The notes under the pieces: generated by a model
Database searches by the model: none
What the model was told of the DNA's origin: nothing
What the model saw: the letters and a program-made list of their open reading frames with translations, nothing else
Program-made: the position numbers and the translations under genes
Shown here: positions 3,640 through 27,746 of the stretch, piece after piece
Layout of the letters: every line of letters begins with the position of its first letter
Position numbering within the stretch: the stretch's first letter is position 1
Sequence record: SRR31156797_9811
Strand: one strand, 5' to 3'
Length of the DNA stretch: 36,225 nucleotides

Positions 3640-3758
3640 GCAATCTCCTGTTGTCGGATAGTCTGTTTGGAGTGGCGACCATACAAAGAATCGGCTGGAT
3701 GGAAAAGGAAAAGAGCGTAAAGCTTGGAGAAGGGCGACTCTCTTGACAAAATAGAGGG

Positions 3759-3774
3759 TGGAAGCCAAGTTGCA
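3759..3774 (+). promoter_or_regulatory. Candidate sigma54 -24/-12 promoter upstream of the maf-like gene
   Basis: TGGAAGCCAAGTTGCA = GG-N10-GC, about 60 nt before ATG 3834; a TTGACA at 3743-3748 is an alternative sigma70 -35. Confidence 0.3.
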
Positions 3775-3833
3775 CAGTTGAGGCAACCGTGTGCCAAACG
3801 GATATCCCTTTGTAACGCAACATCATTGAACCT

Positions 3834-7258: not shown

Positions 7259-7298
7259 GGGGATGTTATTACGCGAAAGGTTGGTGGCGGGCAACGTT

Positions 7299-8423
7299 TC
7301 ATGAGAGGCGCTCAATATACGCGTTGAGAGTTGTTGTGAACAACTCAGCGCCGGTTTCGTTTAGATGTGAATCATCGTAAAAGTGTTCGTTATTGAATTC
7401 ATCAGCTCTCAACATGTCGAAAAAAGGGACATCATGTTTTTGTGTGAGCGAAGAGGTTGTTGCGAGAAATTCCCTTTCAATACCATGAGGAATTTTCTTT
7501 GTATAAAAGGAGTGGCCGGGAACGGTGAACAAGATGGGTTTCAGGTTGTTTTTTTTCAGGTCTGCGATGAGTTTATCCAGAATGAGAACATTTTCTGCAA
7601 AGGTTTTCGGATAGAATTTTATATGTTCTTTTTGGGAAACGAGTTCCATTTTTGCTTGAGCTTTGGAATTTTCTTTGAGCTGATTGAAGTTTCCTCGGTG
7701 TATATTTTTGAAATAATCGGAATACACTTTTTTTTGGGTTGTATAGATGGACATTATGTAGTCGGGGTCAATAATTGTATATGCTTTGTTCACCTTCTGC
7801 TGAGTTTGAAGGGCATTGTGGTAGTCATCTAAAATATGGGAGTACCGTGTCACCATATCGTTTTTTCGCATGGAAAGATCGTAGTGCAGGCTGTAACGGG
7901 TAAGACCTATCAAGGCAAATTCGAGAGATTCAACATGGTACTTTGTGAGGATGTGTTTCCATATTTTTGCATCGAAGTATAAGTCTTGTCCGTTCATTGC
8001 GAAGTTGAATGTCGGTGTTCCCATCTTCTCTTCGAGTACTCCGAGCATGGCATAGGAAATACCCGTTACCATACATCGGAAATCATTTGATCTGGGTGAA
8101 AAGTCATTAAGCCGAGACCTGAAGTAATGATCGTGAAACAGGGCATGCGTGTTCGTGATGCAATTTTCCGGTACTTCGAATTCTGACATGAGCTGGGGTA
8201 CGATGACCTCATGATACGCTGAACAGACTACAACATGGTCGTATTTCCCGCTTTTCAGGATGGAAGGAGAAAAGACTGGCAGGCCACAGAATTCGGTTTC
8301 CCATTTGTTAGAATCGTTGTCGAGGAACCCCAAGACCCGAACGTGTGTCCTCATGAATTGCAGCAGGTGTTTACCTGCGCCCCCGGCACCGAATATGTAT
8401 ATTGATATGGTATTTGTAGACAT
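7299..8423 (-). CDS. Rossmann-like N-domain plus SGNH/DltD-like domain protein (paralogue of 26622-27746)
   Basis: IYIFGAGGAG...GFLDNDSNKW...GLPVFSP N-domain; TGISY (Ser block), FNFAMNGQD, FYDDSHLN (DxxH). Confidence 0.7.
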   Translation of the reverse strand: MSTNTISIYIFGAGGAGKHLLQFMRTHVRVLGFLDNDSNKWETEFCGLPVFSPSILKSGKYDHVVVCSAYHEVIVPQLMSEFEVPENCITNTHALFHDHYFRSRLNDFSPRSNDFRCMVTGISYAMLGVLEEKMGTPTFNFAMNGQDLYFDAKIWKHILTKYHVESLEFALIGLTRYSLHYDLSMRKNDMVTRYSHILDDYHNALQTQQKVNKAYTIIDPDYIMSIYTTQKKVYSDYFKNIHRGNFNQLKENSKAQAKMELVSQKEHIKFYPKTFAENVLILDKLIADLKKNNLKPILFTVPGHSFYTKKIPHGIEREFLATTSSLTQKHDVPFFDMLRADEFNNEHFYDDSHLNETGAELFTTTLNAYIERLS

Positions 8424-8505
8424 GGGGTATGCTGTTGTTGAGGTGTTTAAAGAAAGTTGTTTCAGCTAAAGTCAGGCACAACTCAGGCTGCTTTTACCTT
8501 TTCGG

Positions 8506-9720
8506 TCATATCCACTGCAGAGAATAGAGGCGCTCCAATTCTTTTCGGCTTAGGGCTTCTTCACTCGTTATGTCCATGCCTTCTAATCGTGTTTTCCCTT
8601 TGAATCGAGAGGCTTCGATGAAGAGTTCTTCGTACTTATCGAATACCGTTCTGGGGGAAAATTGTTTTGACGTTTTCAGTGCGGCTTTGCCCATGCTCTC
8701 ACGGAGAGCAGCGTCATCAAGCAGTGTCTTTAATGCCTGTGCAATAACGTTAGGCTTCAGGTCGTCGAAAAGAAGTCCATTGATCCCGTTGACGATAATT
8801 TCATTGGTGCCGCCGCACTGTGCATATCCTATGGTAGGCAGGCCGTGGGCCATGGCCTCAAGCAGGGCATTGGGACATCCTTCAAATTCTGATGGGAACG
8901 CAAAAATTTGCGCCTGCGTGAGCTTTTCATTGATGTCGTCAGTGGATTTGTGGACATATGCTTGTTCCGCAACATCTGCTTTGGCAATGGTTTGTTTCAG
9001 ACTCTCTGCCAGTCTTCCTTCGCCGCCCCAAAAATGGAGTTCCCAATCGGGATAATTCGTTGCGATTAATCCGAAAGCTTTGGCGAGTAGAGGCTGATGC
9101 TTGTGTTCATCCATGCGGGCCACATTGATGATAATTTTTGGAGATTGATTCTTTCCAGTAGGGTCGGAAAGCGTTGTAGTCTGGGCAACCTGATTGGGAA
9201 TAGCGCGGAGACGCTTTTGGAGGAATTCGGGATAATAAGGTCTGAAACCTTCCATTTGAAAGTGGATGAGGTCGGCTGTGGAAAGTACAGCCAGACGTTC
9301 TTCTCTGCTTCCCCAGCAAAAAGGCTCCATGAATGTGGGGTCGGTCCTTTCTGAAAAGATGAGCGGCACGCCGGTGTTTTTGAGAATCGCTGGCCACATC
9401 AGGATCTCGCGGCTTGAACTCATGACAAGGATTGCATCCGGTGTCACGTCGAGAATTTGACGACGTACGTTCTCGTGGAATTGTGGGTCATTATGGTGGC
9501 GGAGAAGTTTGTCGCGATATTTTAGATGTTCTGAGGTGTCGATGTGCAGAAGTTTTATACCATCGTCAAGTTGGAACAAGGGGGCTGAAGGCTTAGTGTC
9601 ATTGACGAGAACTGTACATTGGTGGCCACGGCGAAACATGTCGTTGGCCAGTGCGGCTCCAGCACGTTGGCGCCCCCCTCGTCCCAGAGTCAGATTCCAG
9701 ATAACAATCAGTAGATTCAT
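8506..9720 (-). CDS. GT4 family (GT-B) glycosyltransferase
   Basis: GRGGRQR N-terminal loop, IINVARMDEHKHQ, FAFPSEFEGCPNALLEAMAHGLP, EIIVNGINGLLF. Confidence 0.93.
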   Translation of the reverse strand: MNLLIVIWNLTLGRGGRQRAGAALANDMFRRGHQCTVLVNDTKPSAPLFQLDDGIKLLHIDTSEHLKYRDKLLRHHNDPQFHENVRRQILDVTPDAILVMSSSREILMWPAILKNTGVPLIFSERTDPTFMEPFCWGSREERLAVLSTADLIHFQMEGFRPYYPEFLQKRLRAIPNQVAQTTTLSDPTGKNQSPKIIINVARMDEHKHQPLLAKAFGLIATNYPDWELHFWGGEGRLAESLKQTIAKADVAEQAYVHKSTDDINEKLTQAQIFAFPSEFEGCPNALLEAMAHGLPTIGYAQCGGTNEIIVNGINGLLFDDLKPNVIAQALKTLLDDAALRESMGKAALKTSKQFSPRTVFDKYEELFIEASRFKGKTRLEGMDITSEEALSRKELERLYSLQWI

Positions 9721-9735
9721 CGATATCTCACCGGA

Positions 9736-11910
9736 TTATTTTCCCTTTTCGGAGTGATGGAGTTCTTCCATAAGGTCTCTCGATAATTGCAGGGAATGTT
9801 TTCCCGCCAGCTTGTAGCTTGCTGCAGCCCGTTTGAGATTGTCCATATCCGTGAAGTAATCTCCTTGGGACATGAGAAATAATGCCTGCACCTTTCTGCG
9901 TATGAAATTTTGTTCTTCCTTAATGGTATTGGAGATGAAATCAGGGAGTTCCTTTCGTAATATCCGGCACACATTGGCCAGATAGCGGCGACGACTTGAG
10001 GTATTTAGATTGGTTATCTGTCCTAATCCTGTTGTTCCGGGAGATTGGCGAAAGAATCGTTCTGCCGTCAGCGAAGTGATATGGTACGGATCAGTACGCA
10101 TGGAGAGTCTTCTCCAAAAGTCGAAATCTACAAGGACTTCCAGAGAGGCATCCATTCCGCCTGTCTGTTCAAAAAGAGCACGAGTATGGACAACGGTTAT
10201 GCCCGGAATACAGTTGCATTCCAAGAGATCGCGGAAAGATACCTGTGGAGTATGTAGGGGGCGGCTGCGAACTTTTCTCCAGCTTTTTTCCTGTTGTTCA
10301 AGCGTGGTTTCGATCATATCCGAATAAGTCATATCCACTTGCGGCAGGTTGCGCAGGAAGAACAGGGCGTGTTCCAAGTGGTTTGGAAGCCAGATATCGT
10401 CGTCATCAAGGTAGGCAATATAACTGCCGGACGAAAGGGAAAAGGCAGTGTTTATGGCGTGTCCTTTCGAACAATGCTTTTCGTCGTGGTAGATAATCCG
10501 ACTGTCATTGTAGCCGCTCACAATATCGGCTGCACTTTCCCCGCCATCGTTGACGATGATCAGTTCCCACGAGTCGTGAGTTTGGCTTCTCACCGAGTCT
10601 ACGGCGGAGGAGATCAACTCCTTTCGATTGTATGTTGCCATGAGGATCGACACCTTTTTCGGGCCAGTCGTTGAGATCTTTCCGCTCGGCGGAGTCTTTG
10701 ACAATCGGACCATGGCGGATTCCAAGGCCGCGAGTTCAGAAGAGGAGCCCGTTGTCCTGTCAGAAATGGGTATGATTTCCGTATGAGTACACACGGTTTT
10801 CAGTGAAGATTCCATGGCTGTTGGGCAGACAATTAGTGAATATTGTTTCAGATCTCCAGAAGCGAGTTCTTTTTCGTTTTCTACCCAGAGGACGTTTTGG
10901 GAATAGGGTTTGGTTTTGTATCGGGTTCTGCCGACAAAGACTACGGTGATATCCACATCAAGATCGTCACGCCCCCATTCATCATTGAAATCTATGCGAC
11001 AGAAATGACCCATTTGGCTGAATTTTGCGGCAAGAGCTTCGGCCTTGAGTGTGTTGGCATCCGGCTCAGCTCTATGGTCGAGAGCCGGGATTTTGATAGC
11101 TATGGACAGTGGGTGGTCTGGTGTTTTGCGTTTGGACTCAAGAAAGGCGTAATTGAAATCATCTTGCGTCAACTTGTTGTACCAACGAAGATATGTGCGT
11201 TCCGTGTTGGCCTGACAGTGCTCGAATCGACCTTCACTCTGACTTTCGAAATGGGTGACCTTGCACTCGGGGCGATAAATGATTTTTTGGTGATTTTCAT
11301 GATAGCGCAGGCATAAATCTACATCCTCATGACCATTGATATAGCCTTCGTCAAAGCCGTCCATGCTCAGAAATTCTGTTTTGCGGACCGCCATACATGC
11401 GCCTGTGACTATGCGATATTCCCGACGTTCGGAAACCATCGGGTCATCGGGGCTGGCTGTATAAAAAATATGATACGGAATCCGATTTCGCCCGATGACC
11501 ACCCCGGCATGTTGGACCGTTCCGTCCGCATAGAGAAGGCAGCCTCCAACCACTCCGGTGTCTCTGTTCGAATTCAACTCATCAACAAGGGGTGTAAGCC
11601 AGTTCTCATGAACTTGCGTGTCGTTGTTCAGGAAAACGACATACTCTCCTTTGCTGGCTTGAGCTCCTTGGTTGCAGGCTCGGGCAAATCCGATATTTTG
11701 TTCGTTGCGGATTGCGTTGACAGGCGGGGATTGAGTCTGCGGGAGCTTTGAAAGGAATTCGGGAGTTCCATCAGTGGAAGCATTGTCCACAAAGATGATT
11801 TCATAGGGAAAGGGCGTGCCTGTATGCTTCAGAATGGCATTCCAGCATTGCTCGGTGAGTTCCACCCGATTGAAGAGAGGGATAACGATGCTTACTGTGC
11901 ATTTGGCGAT
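9736..11910 (-). CDS. Multidomain glycosyltransferase: GT2, degenerate middle domain, second GT2, TPR-like tail
   Basis: Two GT-A domains (VSIVIPLFNR...VDNASTDGT...FLNND; VSILMATYNR...VNDGG...YLDDDD). The frame stays open upstream of the GTG at 11865 to an ATC at 11910 preceded by GAGGG; start uncertain. Confidence 0.88.
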   Translation of the reverse strand: MAKCTVSIVIPLFNRVELTEQCWNAILKHTGTPFPYEIIFVDNASTDGTPEFLSKLPQTQSPPVNAIRNEQNIGFARACNQGAQASKGEYVVFLNNDTQVHENWLTPLVDELNSNRDTGVVGGCLLYADGTVQHAGVVIGRNRIPYHIFYTASPDDPMVSERREYRIVTGACMAVRKTEFLSMDGFDEGYINGHEDVDLCLRYHENHQKIIYRPECKVTHFESQSEGRFEHCQANTERTYLRWYNKLTQDDFNYAFLESKRKTPDHPLSIAIKIPALDHRAEPDANTLKAEALAAKFSQMGHFCRIDFNDEWGRDDLDVDITVVFVGRTRYKTKPYSQNVLWVENEKELASGDLKQYSLIVCPTAMESSLKTVCTHTEIIPISDRTTGSSSELAALESAMVRLSKTPPSGKISTTGPKKVSILMATYNRKELISSAVDSVRSQTHDSWELIIVNDGGESAADIVSGYNDSRIIYHDEKHCSKGHAINTAFSLSSGSYIAYLDDDDIWLPNHLEHALFFLRNLPQVDMTYSDMIETTLEQQEKSWRKVRSRPLHTPQVSFRDLLECNCIPGITVVHTRALFEQTGGMDASLEVLVDFDFWRRLSMRTDPYHITSLTAERFFRQSPGTTGLGQITNLNTSSRRRYLANVCRILRKELPDFISNTIKEEQNFIRRKVQALFLMSQGDYFTDMDNLKRAAASYKLAGKHSLQLSRDLMEELHHSEKGK

Positions 11911-12093
11911 TGGAATACCCTCATCGTGTTAAGATGGAAAAAACAGTATGAAGCGGCCAGATGGGGCGTAGTACAAAAAAACCCACTAGAATTGTCGATA
12001 CATAAGCATCGAATGTTAGTCAAATTGCTCCCAGTTTCAGCGCATGGTTTGTTCTTTTTCGTGGCCTGGGGCGTGTTTTTCCGGAGTAAGAGG

Positions 12094-12109
12094 TGGAACA
12101 CTTTTTGTA
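12094..12109 (+). promoter_or_regulatory. Candidate sigma54-like promoter for the rightward glycan operon
   Basis: TGGAACACTTTTTGTA: good -24 box and spacing, but GT instead of GC at -12. Confidence 0.25.
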
Positions 12110-12260
12110 GTACAACTTTTTGGGCGTTGAATTATTGTTATAAGAAAATATTTCAGCCTCGACTCTCTGTGACCTTTCGCTTATGAACAAAGGCGATGGT
12201 TTTCCTCCTTTTGAGGAGACTGTATAGCTTGATAAAATCAATGGAATCAAAGGTGTTAAT

Positions 12261-13850
12261 ATGAGCAAAGAGTACCCTCGCCTCGCTTTGATTGGAGCCG
12301 GATATTGGGGAAAAAATCTCATCAGAAATTTTCATAGCCTCGATTGTCTTGATCTGATCTGTGATAGGAGTGCGGAACATCTTGCCCTTTTTCAGAAGCA
12401 GTATCCTGGTTTGGAAGCCTGTCAGACATTGAGAGAAGTGCTTGAGCGTGATGACATTGATGCTGTCGCCATTTCTACTCCGGCCGAGTTTCATTTTGAA
12501 CAGGCCCGTGAAGTGCTTTTGGCTGGTAAGCATGTGTTTGTGGAAAAGCCGTTGGCCTTGAAGGATTCCGATGCTGCCATCTTGATTGAGTTGGCCAGAG
12601 AACGGGGATTGACGTTGATGGTTGGTCATCTGCTTCAATATCATTCTGTTTTCCGGGCACTCAAAAATTTGGTGGCACACGGTGAACTCGGCCGTATTAA
12701 TTATATTTATTCAAATCGCCTTAATCTAGGTAAAATCAGACGCGAGGAGAATATCCTCTGGTCTTTCGCGCCCCATGATATTTCCATGATTCTCTCTTTG
12801 GCAGGAGAGGCCCCCGATTCCATCATGGCTACGGGTGGTAATTTCCTTCATCGTGAGATCGCTGACGTGACCACGACTCATCTGACTTTTCCGTCCGGGA
12901 TGCAGGCACATTTGTTCGTATCCTGGCTGCACCCGTACAAAGAACAGAAATTGGTCGTGGTCGGTGAAAAGAAAATGGCTCTTTTTGACGATACAAAGCC
13001 GTGGGGTGAAAAGTTGTTGTTGTATCCGCACACGATCAGCTGGGAAAATAATATCCCAGTTCCAGATCAGGCCGAGGCCCAGAAGGTTGAGGTCTCGGAA
13101 AGTGAGCCGCTGCGTGCCGAGTGCGAGCATTTTTTGGAGTGTGTAGCTCAAGGCAAGGTGCCGCTGACGGACGGAGAAGAAGCCCTTCGGGTTTTGAGTG
13201 TGTTGAACAGTGCGCAGGAGTCCATGAATCAGGGTGGGAAGAAAGTTTTTCCTGAATCAGTTGCAGGACAATCTCCCTCGGCTGATGCAAGGGTACATCC
13301 TTCGGCCTGCATAGATGAAGACGTGACTATTGGCTCCGGCACCCGCGTTTGGCATTTTAGTCATGTGTTGAAAGCGAGTTCCATCGGTGCCAACTGCAAT
13401 GTCGGGCAGAATGTCGTCATTGGTCCCCGTGTGCAGATTGGTGATGGATGCAAGATTCAAAATAATGTTTCGGTCTACGAAGGTGTCACTCTTGAGGACG
13501 ATGTCTTTTGTGGTCCGTCCATGGTTTTTACCAATGTGATCAATCCCAGATGTCATATTCCGCGACTCTCGGAGATTAAGCCAACGTTGGTTCGCAAGGG
13601 GGCCACCCTCGGCGCCAATTGTACCATTGTTTGCGGTCACATTCTCGGTGAATACGCTTTTGTCGGAGCAGGTGCAGTGGTAACGCAGGACGTTCCCGCT
13701 CATGGTATGATGGTGGGCAATCCTGCTGTTTTGAAAGGGTGGATGTGCAAGTGCGGGACGCGTCTTTCTTCCGACTTCAACTGCCCGGCCTGTGGTGCTC
13801 AGTATGCAGAAAAAGGAACGGGACTTCATCAAGTGGAGAAATTGTCGTGA
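12261..13850 (+). CDS. Fused Gfo/Idh/MocA sugar 3-dehydrogenase and hexapeptide N-acetyltransferase (WbpB-WbpD / WlbA-WlbB-like)
   Basis: LIGAGYWGKNL, GKHVFVEKPLA, LMVGH, SFAPHDIS; then HPSACIDEDVTIGSGTRVWHFSHV...KIQNNVSVYEGVTLEDDVFCGPSMVFTNVINPR and C-terminal CKCG...CPACG zinc ribbon. Confidence 0.9.
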   Translation: MSKEYPRLALIGAGYWGKNLIRNFHSLDCLDLICDRSAEHLALFQKQYPGLEACQTLREVLERDDIDAVAISTPAEFHFEQAREVLLAGKHVFVEKPLALKDSDAAILIELARERGLTLMVGHLLQYHSVFRALKNLVAHGELGRINYIYSNRLNLGKIRREENILWSFAPHDISMILSLAGEAPDSIMATGGNFLHREIADVTTTHLTFPSGMQAHLFVSWLHPYKEQKLVVVGEKKMALFDDTKPWGEKLLLYPHTISWENNIPVPDQAEAQKVEVSESEPLRAECEHFLECVAQGKVPLTDGEEALRVLSVLNSAQESMNQGGKKVFPESVAGQSPSADARVHPSACIDEDVTIGSGTRVWHFSHVLKASSIGANCNVGQNVVIGPRVQIGDGCKIQNNVSVYEGVTLEDDVFCGPSMVFTNVINPRCHIPRLSEIKPTLVRKGATLGANCTIVCGHILGEYAFVGAGAVVTQDVPAHGMMVGNPAVLKGWMCKCGTRLSSDFNCPACGAQYAEKGTGLHQVEKLS

Positions 13851-13906
13851 CCTTGGAATTGCCTGTTGATGCGGGACTCTTTCCCCGCAGAGTGACCTTG
13901 GAATTG
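13847..13906 (+). repeat. 15-nt direct repeat flanking a short hairpin
   Basis: GTGACCTTGGAATTG at 13847-13861 and 13892-13906, 45 nt apart; TGCGGG-N8-CCCGCA between them. Confidence 0.8.
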
Positions 13907-14770: not shown

Positions 14771-14775
14771 CTCCA

Positions 14776-15882: not shown

Positions 15883-15976
15883 ATTGTGGGCAGGGTTGAT
15901 AGGACGGACGTATGCTTCAGTGATTCGAACCATGTATGGGAAGCCTCTCCCAAGTAAGTGAAGTAGGTATGTTTTT

Positions 15977-20984: not shown

Positions 20985-20988
20985 TCAA

Positions 20989-22050
20989 ATGAAATACTAT
21001 CTGCATGTAGGTCTCCATAAGACGGCGACAAAGTTTTATCAGCACAGCGTCTTTCCTCATCTTCCTGAGGAGAAGTACACGTATAATCCTGGTTTGTTGA
21101 CTCAGTTGATGGCTGATTTGCTGAAGGCATCATCTGGGGATGTTTCCCTTGTTTTGGACGCGATTGCGGAAGAAAAACAACGGTTGGAAAAGGTTGGTCG
21201 AGATGTCGTGATTTCTCGAGAGGTGATGTCTGGCGATTTGTTTAGCTTTTATCGGGATCATACGGAAACCATTTCCCGTCTTGGAAAGGCATTTGACGAT
21301 GCCGAGATACTTTTGGCTTTTCGGTATCAACCCGAATGGATCATCTCCTGTTACCGTGAAAGTGTACATGAACATCACTACCAGAGCCTCGCAGATTTTA
21401 TTAGTCAGTCCGTAACTGATGATGGGTTTGCCCATGCTGACTACAGGATTTTCGATTACACGAGCATTTTGAAGACCTATTGTGAGACATTTGGAAAAGA
21501 GCATGTCCATGTCTCTTTTTTCGAAAGTTTTTGCGAGGATCAGCCGCAAGCAATACGGGATGTTTGTACTATCCTTGGGCTTGAGAAGCCTCTCATCATA
21601 CAGCGATCTTCCTCCATCCCAAACCGAGGGTATTCCGCGTTGGCAATATCCTTGTCCATTTGGCGTTACAAGACACTAAAGGCGTTAGGGTTACATAAAC
21701 GATGTGTTCATCGGCCGATATTTTTCTTTGGAGAGAACGGGATTCCGGCAGGCTTTAAAAATTTGTCTGTGCTGCCCGATGAACCCTATTGGGGGCAACG
21801 TTTTTTGCGGGACAATGAAGAGGTCCGGTCAGATTCATATCCGAACGTTGGCTTTTGGGAGAAGGTTCAGATGGCTTTGAGTTGGCGCAGTCTCATGAAG
21901 CAGGGCGTTGATAGGATTACGTATGTTGATTCCGACTTGTTGAAAGAACAGCGTGCAGAGATTGAAGTTTATTTTCAGGAAAAGAACAAAGCCTTTGATG
22001 TGTACGCTCGTGAAATCAATGTGGAAATACCAAAACGGTATTTGGGGTAG
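20989..22050 (+). CDS. Sulfotransferase-like P-loop protein
   Basis: YLHVGLHKTATKFYQ (5'-PSB-like), VVISRE, ILLAFRYQPEWIISCY (3'-PB-like R...S), FGKEHVHVSFFESF. Confidence 0.7.
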   Translation: MKYYLHVGLHKTATKFYQHSVFPHLPEEKYTYNPGLLTQLMADLLKASSGDVSLVLDAIAEEKQRLEKVGRDVVISREVMSGDLFSFYRDHTETISRLGKAFDDAEILLAFRYQPEWIISCYRESVHEHHYQSLADFISQSVTDDGFAHADYRIFDYTSILKTYCETFGKEHVHVSFFESFCEDQPQAIRDVCTILGLEKPLIIQRSSSIPNRGYSALAISLSIWRYKTLKALGLHKRCVHRPIFFFGENGIPAGFKNLSVLPDEPYWGQRFLRDNEEVRSDSYPNVGFWEKVQMALSWRSLMKQGVDRITYVDSDLLKEQRAEIEVYFQEKNKAFDVYAREINVEIPKRYLG

Positions 22051-22105
22051 GTGCTGTCTATGACGTTTGCCAATGTTTCAACCCCAAAAGTTGAATGGGT
22101 GTAAT

Positions 22106-23656
22106 ATGGAAGTTGTTCTACTGTATATATTTGCATTTGTAATCCGCATCCTTTTTTTGTGTCCGAATTCCACGGACAGCTGGTTGGTCTGGTATTCTTT
22201 GAACAGCCAGAAAGGACGTTGGTTGAATCATGCTGCCTACAACTCCTGTATTGAGGGGGCCATCGGCAATCCAAAATTGCAATATTTTATTGTGAGCCTG
22301 TTTCCGGAAAAGTACCAAACAAGTGCCGGTAATTTGCTCAATATAGTTTATGATTTCGTCGTGATGACGTTTATATATATAATCGCATTCAATACCGTTG
22401 GCGGAGCCGAGGCCCGGTTGTTCGCCTTTCTTTCTGCAATGATCTATGCGACGGCACCCATTCTTTTGCCGTCAACGGCGAGGCTTACCGGGGTCAAGGC
22501 CCGTACTTTGAGCGGGTTGATAGGCTTTTTGTATTTTATGTCGCTCTCTCAGGCCCTTCTGTTTGATAACCATACCTTTTATCTTGTGTGCGGTGTGATT
22601 TCAGTGCTGGCAGTGTTAGCTTCTTCCTTTGCCATGCAGGTAATAGTCTTCTTTTCTCTTATCCTGTCCATTTTTTATATGAACCCGGCTCCGTTGCTGG
22701 CTTTTGTCATTCCGGTCTGTATTGCCTACTTCATCCCTGGAGTTGGTTTGAAGGAGATTGTTCGTCACAAAATCAATCACTACGGATGGTATTTCAATAG
22801 CTACGTGGGTACTGGGGCTAACAACAGAAACGACTTCAAGGGACTGATGGCAGAGATTCGTGGACAACGCAGGGGCAATATTATTCTGTACCATTTGTTT
22901 ATGACGCAAAGCATTCTGATTGCGATGTATTCTCTTCCGGTGCTTTTTGTTTTGCTTTATTATTGTGTTTTTGACGGAGCTTTTTTGCAGATCATCAGCA
23001 ATAGCCCTGTGTACACCTTTTATGCATATCTCGTCGCGGCTTCCTTTCTGTTGTTCATCATTATATCGACTCGGTATTTCCTTTTTTTGGGCGAGGCGGA
23101 ACGGTATTTTGAATATTCTTTTCCTTTTGCCTGTCTGCTGATGGTGCCTCTTTTTAGCTCGGGACGTTTGTCGGCCCTGTTTGGTATCGGTTTGATTCTG
23201 TACCAAATTACCATTGTGCTGTGCGGTCTCTTTTTTAAATATCGTTTTGAGTACTTCAAGGCCTTTGAATCCTTTAAGCCTGACGACGAGGATGTGGAAC
23301 TTGTCGAGATGATAAAGGGGTTGCCCAATGAGAATCCGAGCATTCTCGTTATTCCGACTAAATGCGCCTTCAAGCTGGCCACGCTGACACCGCCGGAATC
23401 CGGCATAAAATATTTGTTGTATTTCGTGACGAACAAAGTTGATGGATTCAAATACATGAAAAGGGCGTTCACGCATTATGAGTCACTTGATTTTGATTTT
23501 GACTATGTCAGATCAGAATACGGCATCGACACTGTTGTGGTGCTGAACGATCAGTGCAAGGTGCTTCCTGAAGTAACTCAAGAGTTTCTTGCGCAGGGTA
23601 CGGTTGTTGGGCGTAACGAGAGATACACACTGTATTCTTTGTTTGACGGACGGTAG
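22106..23656 (+). CDS. Polytopic membrane protein, possible GT-C-fold glycosyltransferase
   Basis: Start set at ATG 22106; roughly ten or more hydrophobic segments, Asp in the first loop (NSTDSW), GEAERYFEY, soluble C-domain ending YGIDTVVV...NERYTLYSL. Confidence 0.6.
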   Translation: MEVVLLYIFAFVIRILFLCPNSTDSWLVWYSLNSQKGRWLNHAAYNSCIEGAIGNPKLQYFIVSLFPEKYQTSAGNLLNIVYDFVVMTFIYIIAFNTVGGAEARLFAFLSAMIYATAPILLPSTARLTGVKARTLSGLIGFLYFMSLSQALLFDNHTFYLVCGVISVLAVLASSFAMQVIVFFSLILSIFYMNPAPLLAFVIPVCIAYFIPGVGLKEIVRHKINHYGWYFNSYVGTGANNRNDFKGLMAEIRGQRRGNIILYHLFMTQSILIAMYSLPVLFVLLYYCVFDGAFLQIISNSPVYTFYAYLVAASFLLFIIISTRYFLFLGEAERYFEYSFPFACLLMVPLFSSGRLSALFGIGLILYQITIVLCGLFFKYRFEYFKAFESFKPDDEDVELVEMIKGLPNENPSILVIPTKCAFKLATLTPPESGIKYLLYFVTNKVDGFKYMKRAFTHYESLDFDFDYVRSEYGIDTVVVLNDQCKVLPEVTQEFLAQGTVVGRNERYTLYSLFDGR

Positions 23657-23663
23657 GTAGAAT

Positions 23664-24374
23664 ATGGCTGCCCAGAGTGTAGCTGAGCGTTTTGAACAAA
23701 CGGAAGCGCTGGCGATCATACCGGCCCGGGGAGGGTCCAAAGGAATTCCGCACAAGAATATTCACCCGTTGTGCGGGAAGCCTCTGATTGCCTACTCTAT
23801 TGAGACTGCTTTGGCCGCATCCAGTATTGATCGTGTGGTGGTTTCCACGGACGATAAGGAAATCGCCGCTGTTGCGCGGGAATATGGTGCTGAGGTGCCA
23901 TATCTGCGACCAGAGTCGTTGGCTTCTGATTCTGCTGAAATATCAGGCTGCATAAATCATATGCTGCAATGGTTGTACGACGAGCAGGGATACGTGAGTG
24001 ATTTGCATACGGTGCTCTACCCGACCCATTTGTTTCGTAAAGTCTCGTTAGTGGATTCCATGGTGCAAAAGGTTGCTGAAGGTGGATATTATACAGCAAC
24101 AACCGTTCGACAGATTGATGTGCAAGAGTCTCAATATTACGCTCAAGACTGTGGCTGCCTGCAAGTACTTCATGATCGGAAGCGTCCATTGGGCCGGGGG
24201 CAATATTACAGAGGGTATGGTTCAGTGCTTGTCCGTTCAAATCATTTTATGCCGTATTCGCGTTATGCTTCTATATTGACAGATGAAATTGAGTTTATAG
24301 ACATTGATGAGTGGGATGATTTCTATCTGGCTGAGGAAGTCATCACACAAGGACTGTACGATTTCGAATTATGA
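23664..24374 (+). CDS. Acylneuraminate cytidylyltransferase family protein (NeuA/PseF/LegF-like)
   Basis: AIIPARGGSKGIPHKNI, GKPLIAYSI, VVVSTDD, YGAEVPYLRPESLASD, IDIDEWDDFYLAE. Confidence 0.92.
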   Translation: MAAQSVAERFEQTEALAIIPARGGSKGIPHKNIHPLCGKPLIAYSIETALAASSIDRVVVSTDDKEIAAVAREYGAEVPYLRPESLASDSAEISGCINHMLQWLYDEQGYVSDLHTVLYPTHLFRKVSLVDSMVQKVAEGGYYTATTVRQIDVQESQYYAQDCGCLQVLHDRKRPLGRGQYYRGYGSVLVRSNHFMPYSRYASILTDEIEFIDIDEWDDFYLAEEVITQGLYDFEL

Positions 24375-25612
24375 TTTTCATACTTCCCATAATAACCGCG
24401 AATACCGCGATGGACTGGTGCGAGGCGCCGCTTTTGGGCCTGTTGAAAAACACGGTGTCAGAGTTGCTTTCGTTACCGAGCCATTATGATGTTTGGTTCC
24501 TGACAGATTCTTCCGTGATTGAGGAGCTGGTTCGAAAGGGGGGGGCGACATCCGTGTTGCGATTCGAGTCAGACGAAAATGGGTTCACAAGTGAACAGAC
24601 AGCCAACATTATTAAAAATAATTTTGGGGATAAGAGTTCCGTCACGGTTCTTGATCACAGGAACCCTTTGTTGACAGCGTCTTTGCTGATGGATGCGGTT
24701 GAAAAGTACTTTGAAGACAGTCAGTCCCCACTTGTCTCAACGGTTACTCCAGATGATCATCCTGTGCAGTTGCGTACCCTTTATAATGTTGTTGATGTCG
24801 GGATGATTCATCTGCTTGATCGTGGGGCTAATACTGTTGAGAGTCTTCCGGCCCAGCTACATCGTGCGCAAGCTGTTACCAAGGTGTTCCCTTTTGATTG
24901 GCGAATCGTCGAAAGTGGTGATTCGGGGAGTGTCGTCTACATGTCCGGAGAGAAAGGGCTTGTACCCTTTACCTTCGGAGAAGTGGATTCCTGGAGCGAG
25001 ATGTGGGTCAAGGAAAGTCCGACAACGGCGCGCATTGCCTTGGACGTGAACGAGCCCGAGGTATGCGGATATGTTTCATCTTCGGTGGGTTTGAATGGCC
25101 GGACATTTGTATCAGAAGACGGCGGTGAATTGTTTTTTCACAGTGAGGAAGCAGACAATTCCATGATGCAGCTTGTGCCATTTACCAGAGACGGTCTGGT
25201 GTCTGAAAGTCCGATGCTTGTTTCTTTGCAAAACGTGAAAACATGGCTCGGCGAGTTCGACGAACATCTCGCGGGTTTTGCCTATGTCGAGCAAAAGCCT
25301 TCAGTCGGCGGACAGTATACCCATGAAAGCCTTTTTTCGCCTGCAAACGGGTGTTGGTGTGCAAGAACGCAGAGGGGGAATGACGGATGCAAGCTTTCTG
25401 GCAGGCAACGGTTCCCTTCGATTTTTCAAGTTGACCCGAGTTTGTTTGTTGGCACAGTGCAGCAGCTGAGGCATTTAGACGACTTGTTGTCTTCCGGGGA
25501 AGTACGTGGTTTCGAACTTGGCAATCATTCTTGTCTTATTCAAAAGCCGCTGGATGTTCTTCGCTATACTGCACGTTTTCGGTGTGTAAAGGGGGAGGGG
25601 CATGATGCATAA
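24371..25612 (+). CDS. Degenerate NeuA-like protein with a large central insertion
   Basis: ATGA overlap with the upstream gene; FLTD, VLDHRNPLL...LVST...DHP, then GRQRFPSIFQVD...IQKPLD are collinear with the NeuA fold; no PARGGSK loop. Confidence 0.55.
   Translation: MIFILPIITANTAMDWCEAPLLGLLKNTVSELLSLPSHYDVWFLTDSSVIEELVRKGGATSVLRFESDENGFTSEQTANIIKNNFGDKSSVTVLDHRNPLLTASLLMDAVEKYFEDSQSPLVSTVTPDDHPVQLRTLYNVVDVGMIHLLDRGANTVESLPAQLHRAQAVTKVFPFDWRIVESGDSGSVVYMSGEKGLVPFTFGEVDSWSEMWVKESPTTARIALDVNEPEVCGYVSSSVGLNGRTFVSEDGGELFFHSEEADNSMMQLVPFTRDGLVSESPMLVSLQNVKTWLGEFDEHLAGFAYVEQKPSVGGQYTHESLFSPANGCWCARTQRGNDGCKLSGRQRFPSIFQVDPSLFVGTVQQLRHLDDLLSSGEVRGFELGNHSCLIQKPLDVLRYTARFRCVKGEGHDA
24538..24545 (+). 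repeat. G8 homopolymer tract within coding sequence
   Basis: cgaaaGGGGGGGGcgaca, currently in frame (K-G-G-A). Confidence 0.85.
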
Positions 25613-26594
25613 GGGAGGAGGCATGAATTCGCGACTTATGCAATTTGCCGTCAAGAATATGGTGCTTAAATCTGTTTCGGAAAAGTCTGAAAGTACTGAT
25701 ATTTTACAAGAATTTTATCGAGATGTGTGCAACTTGCGACTTCCCAATAGGGGAAGGGCTGTGGATGTTCGATTGCCGCAGTCTGTGGAAAAGTACGTTT
25801 CGCCACCTAATACAGCTTTCCGCGATTTGACTCCTGTTGGAAATCGGCGATTTATGGGCATTGAGGTGTATAGCCGCCGCCTTGTCGAGATAAGCTGTGA
25901 AGATGGCATGCGAGATTTGCCTGTGGAATACGGCGCATTCGCATTGACAGGTACGCCCGACGGCTTTGCTTTTATTACTTCGATAGATCAGCAACTCACT
26001 GTACTTAAACGTGATTTGACTATTCATTCCACTTGTTCGCTAAAAGATTTTGGGGTCAGTGCAAATGGCGCTACCCGGATAACAACTTCAAATGACTCCT
26101 TTGTGGTGGTTGTTCCGGAAAGCAGAAAAGTCCTTTTTATCGATAAGGATTTGCGACTCAAAAAAAGTGTTAATTTGCCGTATGGTTCTACCGTTCATGA
26201 TGTTGTTGGTTACAATGGTGGGGTTTTACTTTCGGAGAGTGTGCCGGTTTGCAATGAATCTGGTGCTCTTCTTTGGATGAATGAGCATGGGGATGTTTTC
26301 ACCATATTTGAAGAATTGGATAGACCTTTCGGGCTTTCGACATATCAGGATTGTATCCTTGTCGGTGATTTTAGAGGATTACATTTTGTTCATGTTGAAG
26401 GAATGATCGTTGGAGGGCATCAATGTATTCCATGGAACGAGTTTGCTCAGAAGGTTCAGGCAAGAAGCGGATATATTTATGAATCCGTTATAGAATTGGA
26501 TAGAGTGACAACGATTGTGAGGTTCGCCAGCGGTGGGATCAGTGCAAATACCAATTTTTGTCTGTGTGAATTTGATTTGAACGATATCCGGTGA
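25602..26594 (+). CDS. Hypothetical beta-rich protein (possible beta-propeller)
   Basis: Open frame in operon; starts at 25602 or 25623 both have G-rich RBS; repeated short strands and an NHL-like LDRPFGL segment. Confidence 0.6.
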   Translation: MMHKGGGMNSRLMQFAVKNMVLKSVSEKSESTDILQEFYRDVCNLRLPNRGRAVDVRLPQSVEKYVSPPNTAFRDLTPVGNRRFMGIEVYSRRLVEISCEDGMRDLPVEYGAFALTGTPDGFAFITSIDQQLTVLKRDLTIHSTCSLKDFGVSANGATRITTSNDSFVVVVPESRKVLFIDKDLRLKKSVNLPYGSTVHDVVGYNGGVLLSESVPVCNESGALLWMNEHGDVFTIFEELDRPFGLSTYQDCILVGDFRGLHFVHVEGMIVGGHQCIPWNEFAQKVQARSGYIYESVIELDRVTTIVRFASGGISANTNFCLCEFDLNDIR

Positions 26595-26621
26595 AAGAAT
26601 TTAACGGCCCCCTTTTGAAGT

Positions 26622-27746
26622 ATGTGGGGTATGATGAATATGACACAAAAGTTGAAATTGGCACTCTATGGCGCGGGAAGTGGCGGCGAAATAATGGAAA
26701 GAACTCTTCGTGGTTCTGGGGTGCGAGTTGTCGTTTTTTTTGATTCGGATTCGTCAAAAAAGGGTTCTACCCTCAATGGAATCCCGGTCGATAGCCCTGA
26801 AAACCATGACAAATATGAGTATGATTTTATCATAATCGCATCGACAACAGTGTACGAAGAGAGCATCTACAATACTTTGAGGGCATTGCAAATTCCCGGT
26901 GAGGTCATTGTTCCTCGTACTCTTTTGACAAATAATCTTCCTTCAACAATAAGAGATTATCGAAATGGGGCTTGCCCGGATGTTTGCGCTTCCGGGATGT
27001 CTTATCACCGGCAAGCGATAATACCGCAGTATTCTGCCCATACAATTTTCAATTATGCACAGACTTCAATGGATATTTTTTATGATTTTTCCGTTGCAAA
27101 AGAGTTGCTCAATGGTCGCACGACAACTCCGAAAGTCTGGCTTATTGGTTTGACTTATTACTCTTTGCATTATGACATGAGCTTGTCACAGCCTTGGACG
27201 CGGGTGTTTTATTACAAGGATTTATTTGGCTATCATAACCTTTCAGAGAAAAGAAAAGCCTACTATTTGAACGAATTTGATGTGAAAAAAATGGCTGAGA
27301 TGCTTCCAGAGTCCCTTGTGAAAAGAGTTCAGGCGGCTGAATACACAACGCAGGTTCTGGAAAACAGGCACGTGGTTGACGCTAAAACCCTGGTTGATTT
27401 GTCTCGAAAACAGGCAAAGGCGGACTCCAACAAGGACTACCCTGCGACTTTGGATGAGAATAAAGATTTTCTCGAAGCGTATGTTCAGTTGCTTGTGGAT
27501 AAAGAGATTCAACCTGTATTCACATTGATTCCATTTCCCGATGCATATCCGATTGGAGAAAGTCTTTTTACGGAATTCTTTGAATACCTTGATGGACTTG
27601 GAACAAAATATGGCTGCCAATTAATAAATGGATATGATCTGAACGGATATGGCGACGAGTGTTTTTATGATACTTCACACCTCAATTTGCAAGGTGGGAT
27701 TAAGTATACTCAGCATGTGGATGAGTTTTTGAACAAGATACTCTAA
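26622..27746 (+). CDS. Rossmann-like N-domain plus SGNH/DltD-like domain protein (paralogue of 7299-8423)
   Basis: LALYGAGSGG...FFDSDSSKKG...GIPVDSP; SGMSY, FNYAQTSMD, LIGLTYYSLHYDMS, FYDTSHLN; true start may be 26631-26640. Confidence 0.7.
   Translation: MWGMMNMTQKLKLALYGAGSGGEIMERTLRGSGVRVVVFFDSDSSKKGSTLNGIPVDSPENHDKYEYDFIIIASTTVYEESIYNTLRALQIPGEVIVPRTLLTNNLPSTIRDYRNGACPDVCASGMSYHRQAIIPQYSAHTIFNYAQTSMDIFYDFSVAKELLNGRTTTPKVWLIGLTYYSLHYDMSLSQPWTRVFYYKDLFGYHNLSEKRKAYYLNEFDVKKMAEMLPESLVKRVQAAEYTTQVLENRHVVDAKTLVDLSRKQAKADSNKDYPATLDENKDFLEAYVQLLVDKEIQPVFTLIPFPDAYPIGESLFTEFFEYLDGLGTKYGCQLINGYDLNGYGDECFYDTSHLNLQGGIKYTQHVDEFLNKIL

Follow-up and report, generated by a model that had tools for sequence, protein, structure and literature searches.

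The window, i.e. the whole stretch of 36,225 nucleotides analysed here, contains an island of two divergent arms with two related 374-aa genes (P0001 and P0002) at the arm ends. The main features of the island are as follows.

3834..5609, (+) strand: Maf-type (MptE-like) protein (Pfam PF01973, E 7e-23)
7299..8423, (-) strand: P0001 (paralogue A), 374 aa, with a C2185-like/PglD_N-like N-domain and a DltD-like SGNH domain
8506-9720, (-) strand: GT4 (Pfam), upstream of P0001 on the same strand
9736-11865, (-) strand: double-GT2 protein (Pfam), upstream of P0001 on the same strand
22067..23656, (+) strand: 529-aa protein, the only polytopic membrane protein of the island, GT-C fold, not MBOAT
23664..26594, (+) strand: block immediately preceding P0002, its junctions either overlapping or short
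23664-24374, (+) strand: PseF-like cytidylyltransferase (TIGR03584 PseF, E 1.5e-40, below its cut-off)
26622..27746, (+) strand: P0002 (paralogue B), 374 aa, same two-domain architecture as P0001

An earlier note had described the two genes as diverged paralogues of equal length with collinear motif blocks, and the comparison bears this out. In BLASTP, P0001 and P0002 align end to end (residues 3-373 against 8-373) with 25% identity and 44% positives (E 3e-31, for a single comparison), a likeness that by alignment is far above chance, and 7/7 of the quoted motif pairs were located in the translations. Domain profiles made from 74 diverse relatives and searched against 176 stop-to-stop frames of the window matched these two ORFs only (E<=10), with E-values of 3.7e-26 and 2.6e-25 for the N-domain and 9.2e-79 and 4.5e-71 for the C-domain. 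A FastTree phylogeny of 83 family proteins places the copies in separate supported clades (0.866 and 0.972), and their common node, with a support of 0.257, includes five further representatives. The pair does not stem from a recent duplication.

The proposed position at the arm ends was partly recovered: in the leftward arm P0001 is the final conserved gene and follows GT2-GT2 and GT4, and the rightward arm ends with P0002, which is preceded by the PseF-like cytidylyltransferase and two unknown ORFs (413 aa and 330 aa). Neither gene, however, is strictly the last of the island: a NadE-like ORF (5606-7315) on the strand of P0001 shares 17 nt with the 3' end of 7299-8423, the Maf gene lies beyond it, past the P0001 end of the island, and convergent GT2 and methyltransferase genes follow beyond 26622-27746. 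We take the Maf-type protein to mark the island as tied to flagellin nonulosonic-acid glycosylation, and the island also encodes PseC-like, PseF-like and WbuX/HisH/HisF2 amidino genes as well as two LbH acetyltransferase domains. The 413-aa ORF weakly resembles CMP-NeuAc synthetase at its N-terminus (E 0.02 and 0.07). The 529-aa protein has nine hydrophobic segments and no match in a Pfam search, and its AF2 model (pLDDT 85.6) finds STT3, AglB, PglB, ArnT and DPY19 as top Foldseek matches (E 1e-5 to 4e-4). Given this GT-C enzyme, part of the pathway may lie outside the cytoplasm.

Domains, proposed active site and location

The AF2 model of P0001 is confident (pLDDT 90.6) and agrees with the Rossmann plus SGNH architecture put forward in the note. 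Domains and proposed catalytic positions map as follows.

8148..8411, (-) strand: N-domain of P0001, residues 5-92, Rossmann-like, FGAGGAG after strand 1
7302..8147, (-) strand: SGNH domain of P0001, residues 93-374 (AF2 secondary structure, VIA)
8055..8057, (-) strand: Ser123 codon of P0001 (T-G-I-S-Y), proposed nucleophile (alignment, AF2)
7365..7376, (-) strand: Asp350-x-x-His353 of P0001, SGNH block V, loop before the last helix
27000..27002, (+) strand: Ser127 codon of P0002 (S-G-M-S-Y), aligning with Ser123 of P0001
27669..27680, (+) strand: Asp350-x-x-His353 of P0002 (alignment with P0001)

The SGNH domain holds a helical insertion (approximately residues 176-294) between strands 3 and 4. 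Structure comparison with VIA over model residues 92-374 gave Z 12-15, with matches to PAF-AH 1bwp (Z 14.1, rmsd 3.1, 184 aligned), TesA 1ivn (Z 13.6), sialate O-acetylesterases (Z 12.9-13.2; 7pzg 13.2), DltD 6o93 (Z 12.9, 249 aligned, rmsd 5.6) and PatB 8tlb (Z 12.3), and Foldseek with the P0001 model ranked DltD first (E 1.7e-5). Conservation was scored among 161 family proteins. The Ser of G-x-S-Y and the His of D-x-x-H are both present in 157/157 proteins covering both columns (singly, Ser in 160/160 and His in 158/158 with a residue there); the Ser...DxxH set suspected earlier is invariant in these two residues. In the P0001 model, Ser123 sits at the start of the helix after SGNH strand 1. 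The acid position is Asp in 136/157 proteins and His (10), Asn (8) or another residue (3) in the remainder; the 18 with His or Asn count against the reading favoured below. Asp147 is kept in 161/161 proteins, and about ten further polar residues are conserved besides Ser and His. For the oxyanion residues of SGNH blocks II/III no assignment could be made, with Asn140 kept in only 141/161, and this too counts against the favoured reading.

The N-domain of P0001 superimposes on 2g6t (VIA Z 12.2, rmsd 1.8, 85 residues) and also matches 3nkl. Profile matches include 2g6t (E 1.1e-11), 3nkl (E 5e-10), Rex and VioB, and these, together with the structure, back the claimed PglD/NeuD likeness, for which the PglD_N/NeuD models themselves score weakly and below curated cut-offs, as do most Pfam matches of the N-module, and the NeuD/PglB/VioB subfamily model gives E 2e-5 and 1.9e-4. 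The N-domains of PglD, NeuD and VioB bind sugar nucleotides. A further resemblance is to domains that bind CoA or NAD (Rex, DapB, succinyl-CoA synthetase), one related N-module gives a CoA_binding match, and the N-domain could hold the acyl donor instead of a sugar. In related loci the same module is carried by methyltransferases (TylF, FkbM and others) and by DUF1919 proteins; since these enzymes use a different donor, the common part is more likely the acceptor or a partner. The module is likewise shared with PDB 2g6t, an uncharacterised Clostridium acetobutylicum protein (Pfam C2185-like_N) whose C-domain differs from SGNH, being of DUF1919 type by homology to a relative in locus L023 that scores DUF1919. 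In L023, a 2g6t homologue (E 1.9e-32) stands directly upstream of a family member, beside flagellin.

Both proteins are predicted to be cytoplasmic and to lack a signal peptide, as stated in the note. No 19-residue segment of either reaches a Kyte-Doolittle mean of 1.6 (highest values 1.06 and 0.82), and the N-terminus of P0001 is modelled as the buried first strand of the N-domain. Across the family, 150/161 proteins are without any 19-residue window >=1.6. The module also occurs fused C-terminally to other domains, in proteins where no span averages >=1.7 in hydropathy; the partners among 18 representatives scanned were GT2+TPR (4), GT4 (2) and methyltransferase+TPR (1). The absence of an MBOAT partner was equally confirmed for the window, where a Pfam search of 28 ORFs gave no MBOAT or AT3 match and the single polytopic protein is of GT-C fold.

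Genomic context of relatives

The context survey covered 18 related metagenome loci with their neighbours, among which soluble sugar-nucleotide enzymes and flagellin genes predominate. Glycosyltransferase or sugar-nucleotide genes occur at 17/18 loci, flagellin or other flagellar genes at four, Maf at three and NeuB at seven (any of these three at 11/18). These counts overstate how many cases are independent, since a Bacillota-type query alignment was used to find the loci and several of them nearly duplicate one another. The supposed linkage of homologues to glycan loci is thereby upheld, but the context is narrower than a general glycan role, comprising mostly flagellin-glycosylation and nonulosonic-acid islands. 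In the nearest genome examined, the flagellin and NeuB genes are far away from the island.

Both ends of the island have counterparts elsewhere. The order GT2x2-GT4-P0001-like is kept in L001 (58-63% identity), and the order PseF-like/413-aa/330-aa/P0002-like in L002, where a Maf homologue adjoins the P0002-like gene. A Desulfovibrio MAG contig again carries both paralogues at the ends of two divergent arms, ~19 kb apart, with the outer genes exchanged (GT2 after the P0001-like and Maf after the P0002-like copy); NadE was not found at the two Desulfovibrio MAG loci.

Proposed sugar acylation and competing readings

Within the cell, P0001 and P0002 are probably responsible for acylating or deacylating a sugar. 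We favour, tentatively and with somewhat less than even confidence, that they are soluble cytoplasmic serine acyl-enzymes, most likely O-acyltransferases tailoring sugars of the island's glycan pathway. A nucleotide-activated sugar would be held by its nucleotide part in the Rossmann-like N-domain, and Ser123 (Ser127 in P0002), activated by His353 and Asp350, would accept the acyl group from a cytoplasmic thioester, with acetyl-CoA as the default candidate donor. The acyl group would then be passed to a sugar hydroxyl, similar to CASD1 with CMP-sialic acid, and no MBOAT or AT3 membrane partner would be required. The two copies might serve different steps of the pathway, with P0002, following the PseF-like cytidylyltransferase, acting on CMP-nonulosonic acid, and P0001, following GT2/GT4, on another sugar or the growing glycan. 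Against acyl transfer, minimal esterases slightly outscore transferases over the SGNH core (VIA), and the two LbH acetyltransferase domains of the island could provide all acetylations; moreover, no sequence feature of P0001 or P0002 distinguishes transferase from esterase. The idea of an acylating or deacylating family in the earlier note survives in its architecture, Ser...DxxH set, cytoplasmic location and glycan linkage, and has to be corrected for the last-gene position and the presumed rarity of cytoplasmic SGNH enzymes. As supposed there, the two-domain family looks uncharacterised, and literature searches gave no paper on it.

Precedents for this chemistry exist. The esterase domain of NeuA is of the SGNH/PAF-AH type; it is fused to a cytidylyltransferase and is without the N-domain of the window proteins. 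For E. coli K1 and group B Streptococcus, NeuD and the NeuA esterase are described as writing and erasing O-acetyl groups on cytoplasmic monomeric or CMP-sialic acid, the NeuA esterase by de-O-acetylation of the free or CMP-activated sugar (PMC8319020). NeuD shares a weak N-domain likeness with the window proteins, but its catalytic domain is a left-handed beta-helix and not SGNH. The SGNH-type domain of CASD1 is described as transferring acetyl from acetyl-CoA to CMP-sialic acid via an acetyl-enzyme intermediate (PMC4510713), the same serine acyl-enzyme chemistry as proposed for P0002. Unlike the window proteins, CASD1 is a eukaryotic protein of the Golgi lumen that carries a multi-pass membrane domain, and the likeness is mechanistic only, with no sequence or structural match to CASD1 obtained. 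PatA/PatB, AlgI/AlgJ/AlgX and OatA, on the other hand, are described as acting outside the membrane and relying on a membrane acyl translocator (PMC9487903). The notion that SGNH enzymes usually work outside the cytoplasm thus applies to DltD, PatB and AlgJ, and a cytoplasmic member is unusual only in comparison with these, because SGNH enzymes that work on sugars in the cytoplasm (NeuA) or in a compartment containing acetyl-CoA (CASD1) are already known. MBOAT-SGNH and AT3-SGNH pairs have the SGNH domain and the Ser-His-Asp logic in common with the window proteins, which are without such a partner nearby and without an export signal. The family profile also weakly matches the 'Acetyltransferase' chain 6vjp (E 0.056), presumably the OatA C-domain.

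Possible, although we consider it less likely, is a role as cytoplasmic sugar O-acyl esterases, which would edit or regulate the modification by stripping O-acetyl or another ester from a sugar that is free, nucleotide-activated or linked to protein. The top VIA core matches are hydrolases (PAF-AH 14.1, TesA 13.6, sialate O-acetylesterases 12.9-13.2), an acyl donor, not evident in the island, would be unnecessary for hydrolysis, the LbH acetyltransferases could be the corresponding writers, and NeuA is described as de-O-acetylating monomeric sialic acid in the cell before or after CMP activation (PMC8319020). However, the nearest family by sequence is a transferase, DltD (profile E 0.021 to 6o93), glycosyltransferase fusions and the position in biosynthetic operons suit a building step better than editing, and two esterases within one island would be unusual.

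At the sequence level, the C-domain is related only to DltD (PF04914), an SGNH-like D-alanyl transferase that belongs to the Dlt pathway for teichoic acids. P0002 matches the last third of the DltD profile in Pfam (residues 262-370, E 0.0056); the curated cut-off is missed by both window proteins and passed by 4/18 family members. DltD also gives the longest structural alignments (247-257 residues, Z 12.3-12.9) and shares the Ser...DxxH set. In contrast to DltD, the window proteins have a Rossmann-like N-domain and no N-terminal membrane anchor, have no DltA, DltB MBOAT, DltC or DltX nearby, and are cytoplasmic proteins, as predicted, of protein-glycosylation/nonulosonate islands and not teichoic-acid loci. 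A strictly DltD-like transfer of an aminoacyl or hydroxyacyl group from a ligase or carrier protein to a polyol-phosphate or sugar substituent of the glycan, which would be a cytoplasmic analogue of teichoic-acid D-alanylation, seems doubtful to us. Several related loci would suit it, with TagF-like glycerophosphotransferases close by (L012, L020), a CDP-alcohol phosphatidyltransferase (L014, L015) or small cytidylyltransferase (L017) directly before the family gene, and ATP-grasp ligases (L014, L016, L018, L026, L027, L032). In the window, however, 0/28 ORFs encode a carrier protein, adenylating enzyme, ATP-grasp, TagF-like or CDP-alcohol gene, and even a small carrier gene would not fit into the gaps of the island.

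General thioesterases, lipases or amidases without a glycan role, or inactive scaffolds, are improbable: TesA-type thioesterases do rank among the best structural matches, but the strict conservation of Ser, His and about ten more polar residues, the persistence of the family within glycan clusters, the glycosyltransferase fusions and the retained position of both copies in a second genome argue otherwise. An action outside the cytoplasm, with acyl groups supplied by a membrane partner whose gene lies elsewhere, can hardly be expected, for although DltD and the structural relatives PatB and OatA are described as working outside the membrane (PMC9487903) and the GT-C enzyme of the island faces the periplasm, P0001 and P0002 have neither signal peptide nor anchor, MBOAT and AT3 are absent from the window, the N-terminus is modelled as a strand buried within a nucleotide-binding-type domain, relatives fused to GT2, GT4 or methyltransferase domains contain no span that averages >=1.7 in hydropathy, and soluble sugar-nucleotide enzymes and flagellin genes prevail around the family genes at the 18 related loci.

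Paralogous copies and their island

The window carries two family genes, P0001 and P0002, one in each of the two divergent arms of a sugar-decoration island. The earlier note had described them as paralogues, and the comparison bears this out: the two proteins align over their whole length in BLASTP (25% identity, 44% positives, E 3e-31), and all motif pairs that the note quoted are present in both translations. When profiles of the two halves of the protein (N-terminal and C-terminal), derived from 74 diverse relatives, were searched against the 176 stop-to-stop frames of the window, only P0001 and P0002 matched. The paralogy is real, and an effect of composition can be excluded. A third copy of either domain was sought among the same 176 frames with these profiles, and none was found. 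In a FastTree phylogeny of 83 family proteins, each copy falls in its own supported clade (0.866 for P0001, 0.972 for P0002), while their common node has a support of only 0.257 and takes in five other representatives. The paralogy is old, and the tree rules out a recent tandem-type duplication.

The leftward arm consists of a double GT2, a GT4, P0001 and an overlapping NadE-like gene, with a Maf (MptE-like) gene beyond it. The rightward arm contains a GFO/MocA-LbH fusion, a radical SAM/SPASM enzyme, a PseC-like aminotransferase and an AsnB-like amidotransferase, continues with an LbH acetyltransferase, WbuX/HisH/HisF2 amidino genes and a weakly sulfotransferase-like ORF, and ends with a GT-C protein, a PseF-like cytidylyltransferase, two unknown ORFs and P0002.

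Selected features of the window (coordinates, strand, description)
3157-3786, minus: 209-residue ORF without a match, one hydrophobic segment
5606-7315, minus: glutamine-dependent NAD synthetase-like gene (CN_hydrolase + NAD_synthase), overlapping the 3' end of the P0001 gene by 17 nt
7299-8423, minus: P0001, 374 residues
12261-13850, plus: GFO/IDH/MocA oxidoreductase fused to a hexapeptide acyltransferase, 529 residues
13739-14770, plus: radical SAM/SPASM ORF with a GTG start as called, overlapping 12261-13850 by 112 nt
20989-22050, plus: 353-residue ORF with a weak sulfotransferase-like stretch (E 9e-4)
22067-23656, plus: polytopic membrane protein of 529 residues, no Pfam match, GT-C-fold model
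24371-25612, plus: 413-residue ORF with a weak CMP-NeuAc-synthetase-like N-terminus (E 0.02-0.07)
25602-26594, plus: 330-residue ORF without a recognised domain, directly upstream of P0002
26622-27746, plus: P0002, 374 residues

For the NAD synthetase-like gene, a housekeeping function and a role as an amidotransferase that the island has recruited are both conceivable. The oxidoreductase-acyltransferase fusion resembles a joined 3-dehydrogenase and N-acetyltransferase, and its overlap with the radical SAM/SPASM ORF suggests that the true start of the latter is probably later. A PDB sequence search with the 413-residue ORF reached E 0.07, and the ESM Atlas yielded only unnamed clusters for the 330-residue ORF, with recognition below a useful level.

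G+C content is 0.41-0.49 over ~2-30 kb, with a minimum of 0.414 at 26-28 kb (P0002), compared to 0.50-0.53 in the flanks, which carry response-regulator and pyrimidine genes. The nearest comparison genome (G001) shares 76% of the sampled words of the window and contains both copies at a distance of 19 kb. Among 401 genomes of its phylum no other has full-length matches; six have single-domain matches only, at E<=1e-10, and a search of the others did not find the family. Both the low G+C and the presence of full-length copies in a single genome of the phylum agree with the acquisition of an accessory island. In G001, six flagellin matches and two NeuB matches lie away from the island. A profile search of genome contigs gave two loci, both on one Desulfovibrio MAG contig (L001, L002). 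Both arms are preserved on this contig, as are the two copies, with 54-58% identity, and the 413-residue and 330-residue ORFs are conserved upstream of its P0002-like gene. The genes outside the two copies are swapped relative to the window, and NadE and WbuX/HisH/HisF genes are absent from the two loci.

Domain architecture and predicted catalytic residues

The AlphaFold2 model of P0001, computed with a 16-sequence alignment (mean pLDDT 90.6, pTM 0.88), consists of two domains. An SGNH fold had been proposed for the second, and the model, Foldseek and the VIA structure comparison all agree on it: residues 93-374 form a five-stranded parallel sheet (strands 117-120, 138-140, 169-173, 295-300 and 334-336) alternating with helices, with a helical insertion at ~residues 176-294 between strands 3 and 4. 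Nearly all of the 48 Foldseek matches at E<=1e-3 are SGNH proteins, headed by DltD (3bma, 7dxm, 6pfx; ~2e-5) and followed by SGNH esterases and PatB. VIA gave Z scores of 12-15 over residues 92-374, namely 14.1 for the PAF-AH 1bwp (rmsd 3.1, 184 aligned), 13.6 for TesA, 12.9-13.2 for sialate O-acetylesterases, 12.3 for PatB and 12.3-12.9 for DltD, the last with the longest alignments (247-257 residues, rmsd 5.1-6.3).

By sequence, DltD is the only visible relative of the C-domain. Pfam and NCBIfam gave only sub-threshold matches on the two window proteins: P0002 matches the final third of the DltD model in Pfam (E 0.0056, 16.5 bits against a cut-off of 22.7) and scores 15.1 bits against TIGR04092 (cut-off 150), while P0001 has no DltD match in either scan. 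Four of the 18 relatives scanned pass the Pfam DltD cut-off (33.9, 28.0, 25.5 and 23.7 bits), matching only ~238-348 of the 348 profile positions. The broader 74-sequence profile (A2) reached DltD 6o93 at E 0.021; a C-domain-only profile of 16 sequences had no PDB match at E<=10, and phmmer with a DltD-positive relative (P0075) found no DltD among PDB sequences.

Conservation was assessed by aligning 161 family proteins to the C-domain profile (P0001 numbering). Block I is represented by the motif T-G-[ILM]-S-Y, in which Gly121 and Ser123 are invariant; Ser123 occurs in 160/160 proteins with a residue in this column and is the first residue of helix 123-128, following strand 117-120. His353 of the D-x-x-H motif is equally constant (158/158), and among proteins covering both columns each of the two residues is present in 157/157. 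The D-x-x-H motif lies in the loop just before the last helix (356-373), so that in the model both motifs occupy the positions of SGNH blocks I and V, with Ser123 as the predicted nucleophile. Other conserved positions are Asp147 (161/161), Asn278 (157 of 159 proteins with a residue there), Asp182 (151/161), Gln146 (149/161), Asn140 at the end of strand 2 (141/161) and Gly173 after strand 3 (134/161). Of these, Asn140, Gly173 and Asn278 are possible candidates for the block II Gly and block III Asn of the oxyanion hole. The acid of D-x-x-H, Asp350, is Asp in 136 of 157 proteins and otherwise His (10), Asn (8) or another residue (3). Ser and His are still invariant in the 18 proteins with His or Asn, which may constitute a sub-branch whose triad is altered.

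The first domain (residues 5-92) is small and Rossmann-like, and its strand 1 is followed by F-G-A-G-G-A-G. In the VIA comparison it fits the N-domain of the uncharacterised protein 2g6t (PDB) from Clostridium acetobutylicum at Z 12.2 (rmsd 1.8 Å, 85 residues aligned), and the family profile matches 2g6t at E 1.1e-11 (positions 1-104). This homology places the family in C2185-like_N (PF22674), an annotation precomputed on 14 of 14 close homologues; in the single-sequence Pfam scan P0002 scores 15.3 bits against a cut-off of 27 and P0001 is not listed. Family profiles also match 3nkl, a fragment named UDP-D-quinovosamine 4-dehydrogenase (E 5e-10 and 3e-7), as well as Rex, DapB and VioB (7txp, E 4.3e-4). 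Similarity to the NeuD/PglD group is weak: PglD_N matches the two window proteins below cut-off (E 0.0078 and 0.026), and TIGR03570 (NeuD/PglB/VioB) reaches E 2e-5 and 1.9e-4, or 24 and 21 bits against a cut-off of 160.8, within the N-terminal 60-80 residues only. NeuD and PglD have a left-handed beta-helix (hexapeptide) catalytic domain, whereas the C-domain here is SGNH and gave no Hexapep match in Pfam; lacking the beta-helix domain, the window proteins are not NeuD/PglD enzymes.

Predicted cellular location and gene context of relatives

No hydrophobic segment was found in P0001 or P0002, in which the mean hydropathy over 19 residues peaks at 1.06 and 0.82, respectively. The same applies to the family at large, with 150/161 proteins lacking a 19-residue segment >=1.6 and the marginal exceptions being mostly on the hydrophobic first strand. 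In relatives of 700-1,200 residues the module is C-terminal to GT2+TPR (4 of the 18 scanned), GT4 (2) or methyltransferase+TPR (1), and these fusions have no segment above 1.62.

The earlier note had also maintained that no MBOAT partner is present, and this holds for the 28 window ORFs scanned by Pfam, which include neither MBOAT nor AT3 proteins, carrier proteins or adenylating enzymes, and of the dlt genes neither the ligase DltA, the MBOAT DltB nor the carrier DltC. The lone polytopic protein (22067-23656) was considered as the missing MBOAT and rejected because of its GT-C fold: its model (pLDDT 85.6) matches STT3, AglB, PglB, ArnT and DPY19 in Foldseek (E 1e-5 to 4e-4), which identifies it as a GT-C glycosyltransferase rather than an acyl translocator. 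A PDB sequence search with this protein gave nothing; the Desulfovibrio MAG locus has a conserved counterpart of 63% identity. The modelled fold implies that part of the island would glycosylate something outside the cytoplasm from a lipid-linked donor. P0001 and P0002 themselves are predicted to be cytoplasmic, with no membrane partner of the Dlt, Pat or Alg type within the island.

In an exhaustive profile search of 1.84 billion representatives (clusters at 50% identity), the number of matching proteins was 15,320 for E<=1e-3, 2,775 for E<=1e-10 and 284 for E<=1e-30, the two looser tiers surely including N-domain-only proteins. The family is found mainly in Bacillota-type clusters and annotated only as hypothetical. 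The nearest ESM Atlas clusters are likewise Bacillota "C2185-like N-terminal domain-containing" or hypothetical proteins, and the top cluster has PF22674 in 91% and DltD in 18% of its members.

A metagenome scan with a 15-sequence subset alignment of Bacillota type as the query yielded 21 loci, of which three of 1.5-2.4 kb were omitted for want of room for neighbours and 18 (13 + 5) were scanned by Pfam. Near-duplicates (L013/L016/L018/L032 and L014/L015) reduce these to ~13 independent architectures. A link of homologues to glycan loci, the subject of the neighbourhood survey suggested earlier, is evident: 17/18 loci have glycosyltransferase or sugar-nucleotide genes nearby, the exception (L026) having IS genes and a "sugar-transfer associated" ATP-grasp. 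Flagellin or other flagellar genes are near the family member at four loci (L020, L023, L024, L028), Maf at three (L016, L019, L032) and NeuB at seven (L013, L016, L017, L018, L023, L027, L032), so that 11 of the 18 have at least one of them. L021 also has PseB-like, PseG-like and DUF2920 genes, and a GT2-TPR gene directly precedes the family member in L013, L016, L018 and L020.

The N-module also starts other proteins at these loci, i.e. TylF methyltransferases (L013:3515-4348, L016:3716-4588, L020:476-1531), other methyltransferases (L019, 2175-3332 and 9437-10429), an FkbM methyltransferase (L021:4233-5312) and a DUF1919 protein (L023:7137-7949), the last a 2g6t homologue (E 1.9e-32). Scores of the module on these proteins are mostly 20-29 bits, at or under the cut-off of 27, and we regard a module common to several tailoring enzymes as a lead. 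If it holds, its occurrence on unlike enzymes would suggest that the module recognises a shared acceptor or partner protein, not the donor.

Many relatives are longer (480-505 residues, e.g. L024:6568-8055, L028:7563-9077, L029:7475-8962, P0063, P0070 and P0075), with an extra soluble N-terminal stretch of ~110-125 residues without a Pfam match; of the three metagenome examples, two have flagellin genes on one side and flagellar chaperone or cap genes on the other.

Possible functions in glycan decoration

Fold and conserved residues suggest that P0001 and P0002 work like SGNH acyl enzymes, with DltD as the nearest. DltD is membrane-anchored, whereas the window proteins start with a Rossmann-like domain and have no hydrophobic segment; of the four features of DltD membership considered, three are lacking: a score above the model cut-off, a membrane anchor and a dlt operon. 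The reading that we tentatively place first is that both are soluble O-acyltransferases. The serine would form an acyl-enzyme intermediate from a cytoplasmic thioester, by default acetyl-CoA, and the acyl group would be passed to a hydroxyl of a nucleotide-activated sugar held by the N-domain. P0002 would act on the CMP-nonulosonate from the adjacent cytidylyltransferase and P0001 on the sugar used by the adjacent GT2/GT4 enzymes. A precedent is CASD1, which forms an acetyl-enzyme from acetyl-CoA and hands the acetyl group on to CMP-sialic acid (PMC4510713).

The main rival reading is that they are esterases editing O-acylation, the part that NeuA plays opposite NeuD (PMC8319020). The slightly higher VIA scores of the core fold against hydrolases and the LbH acetyltransferases in the island argue for it, and we consider it rather unlikely on balance, if a serious contender. 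Plain esterases would make a useful annotation and no surprise. A stricter DltD-like role, i.e. aminoacyl or hydroxyacyl transfer onto a polyol-phosphate or sugar, would suit the TagF-like, CDP-alcohol and ATP-grasp neighbours in some Bacillota-type loci, but no such genes occur in the window and the role appears improbable here. The location evidence and the gene context of relatives make a role outside the glycan pathway quite improbable and extracytoplasmic action of P0001 and P0002 very improbable indeed.

A broader proposal, possible yet doubtful, is that the soluble O-acyltransferases belong to a cytoplasmic, partner-free branch of DltD/PatB-type SGNH acyltransferases for protein-linked (flagellin) glycans, with the N-domain as a shared handle or docking module. 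Such enzymes would load themselves directly from a soluble acyl donor, and the acceptor would be a nucleotide-activated nonulosonic acid or a polyol-phosphate side group. Flagellin-glycosylation islands would then join the C2185-like N-domain to interchangeable SGNH, TylF/FkbM and DUF1919 domains. If so, the family may provide the enzymes, so far missing, that decorate flagellin sugars with O-acyl groups, and the N-module may predict the orphan enzymes that share one intermediate.

Flagellin and other protein-linked glycans are often decorated with acyl and methyl groups, which shape antigenicity and motility, and to our knowledge the enzymes adding them are mostly unassigned. The family is large, with 284 clusters in the strictest tier of the profile search, and suggests that the DltD-type catalytic domain, so far known from extracellular, MBOAT-fed envelope acylation, also exists in a soluble, cytoplasmic form joined to a nucleotide-binding-type domain or to glycosyltransferases. 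New are the architecture, location and pathway, while the catalytic fold and chemistry are already known. In the literature covered, to which subscription journals mostly did not belong, we found no paper on the family, none joining flagellin glycosylation to SGNH, GDSL or DltD, and nothing relevant on C2185-like, CAC2185, PF22674 or 2G6T. In the portion consulted of an SGNH review, DltD (PF04914) is given only as a lipoteichoic acid D-alanyl transferase, and PatB and OatA rely on a membrane translocator (PMC9487903).

A second SGNH type (Lipase_GDSL_2, 331-336 residues) occurs at L017:13086-14096, L021:9127-10125 and L032:4004-4999. These proteins have the catalytic domain in the first ~175 residues and adjoin NeuB or PseB-like genes.
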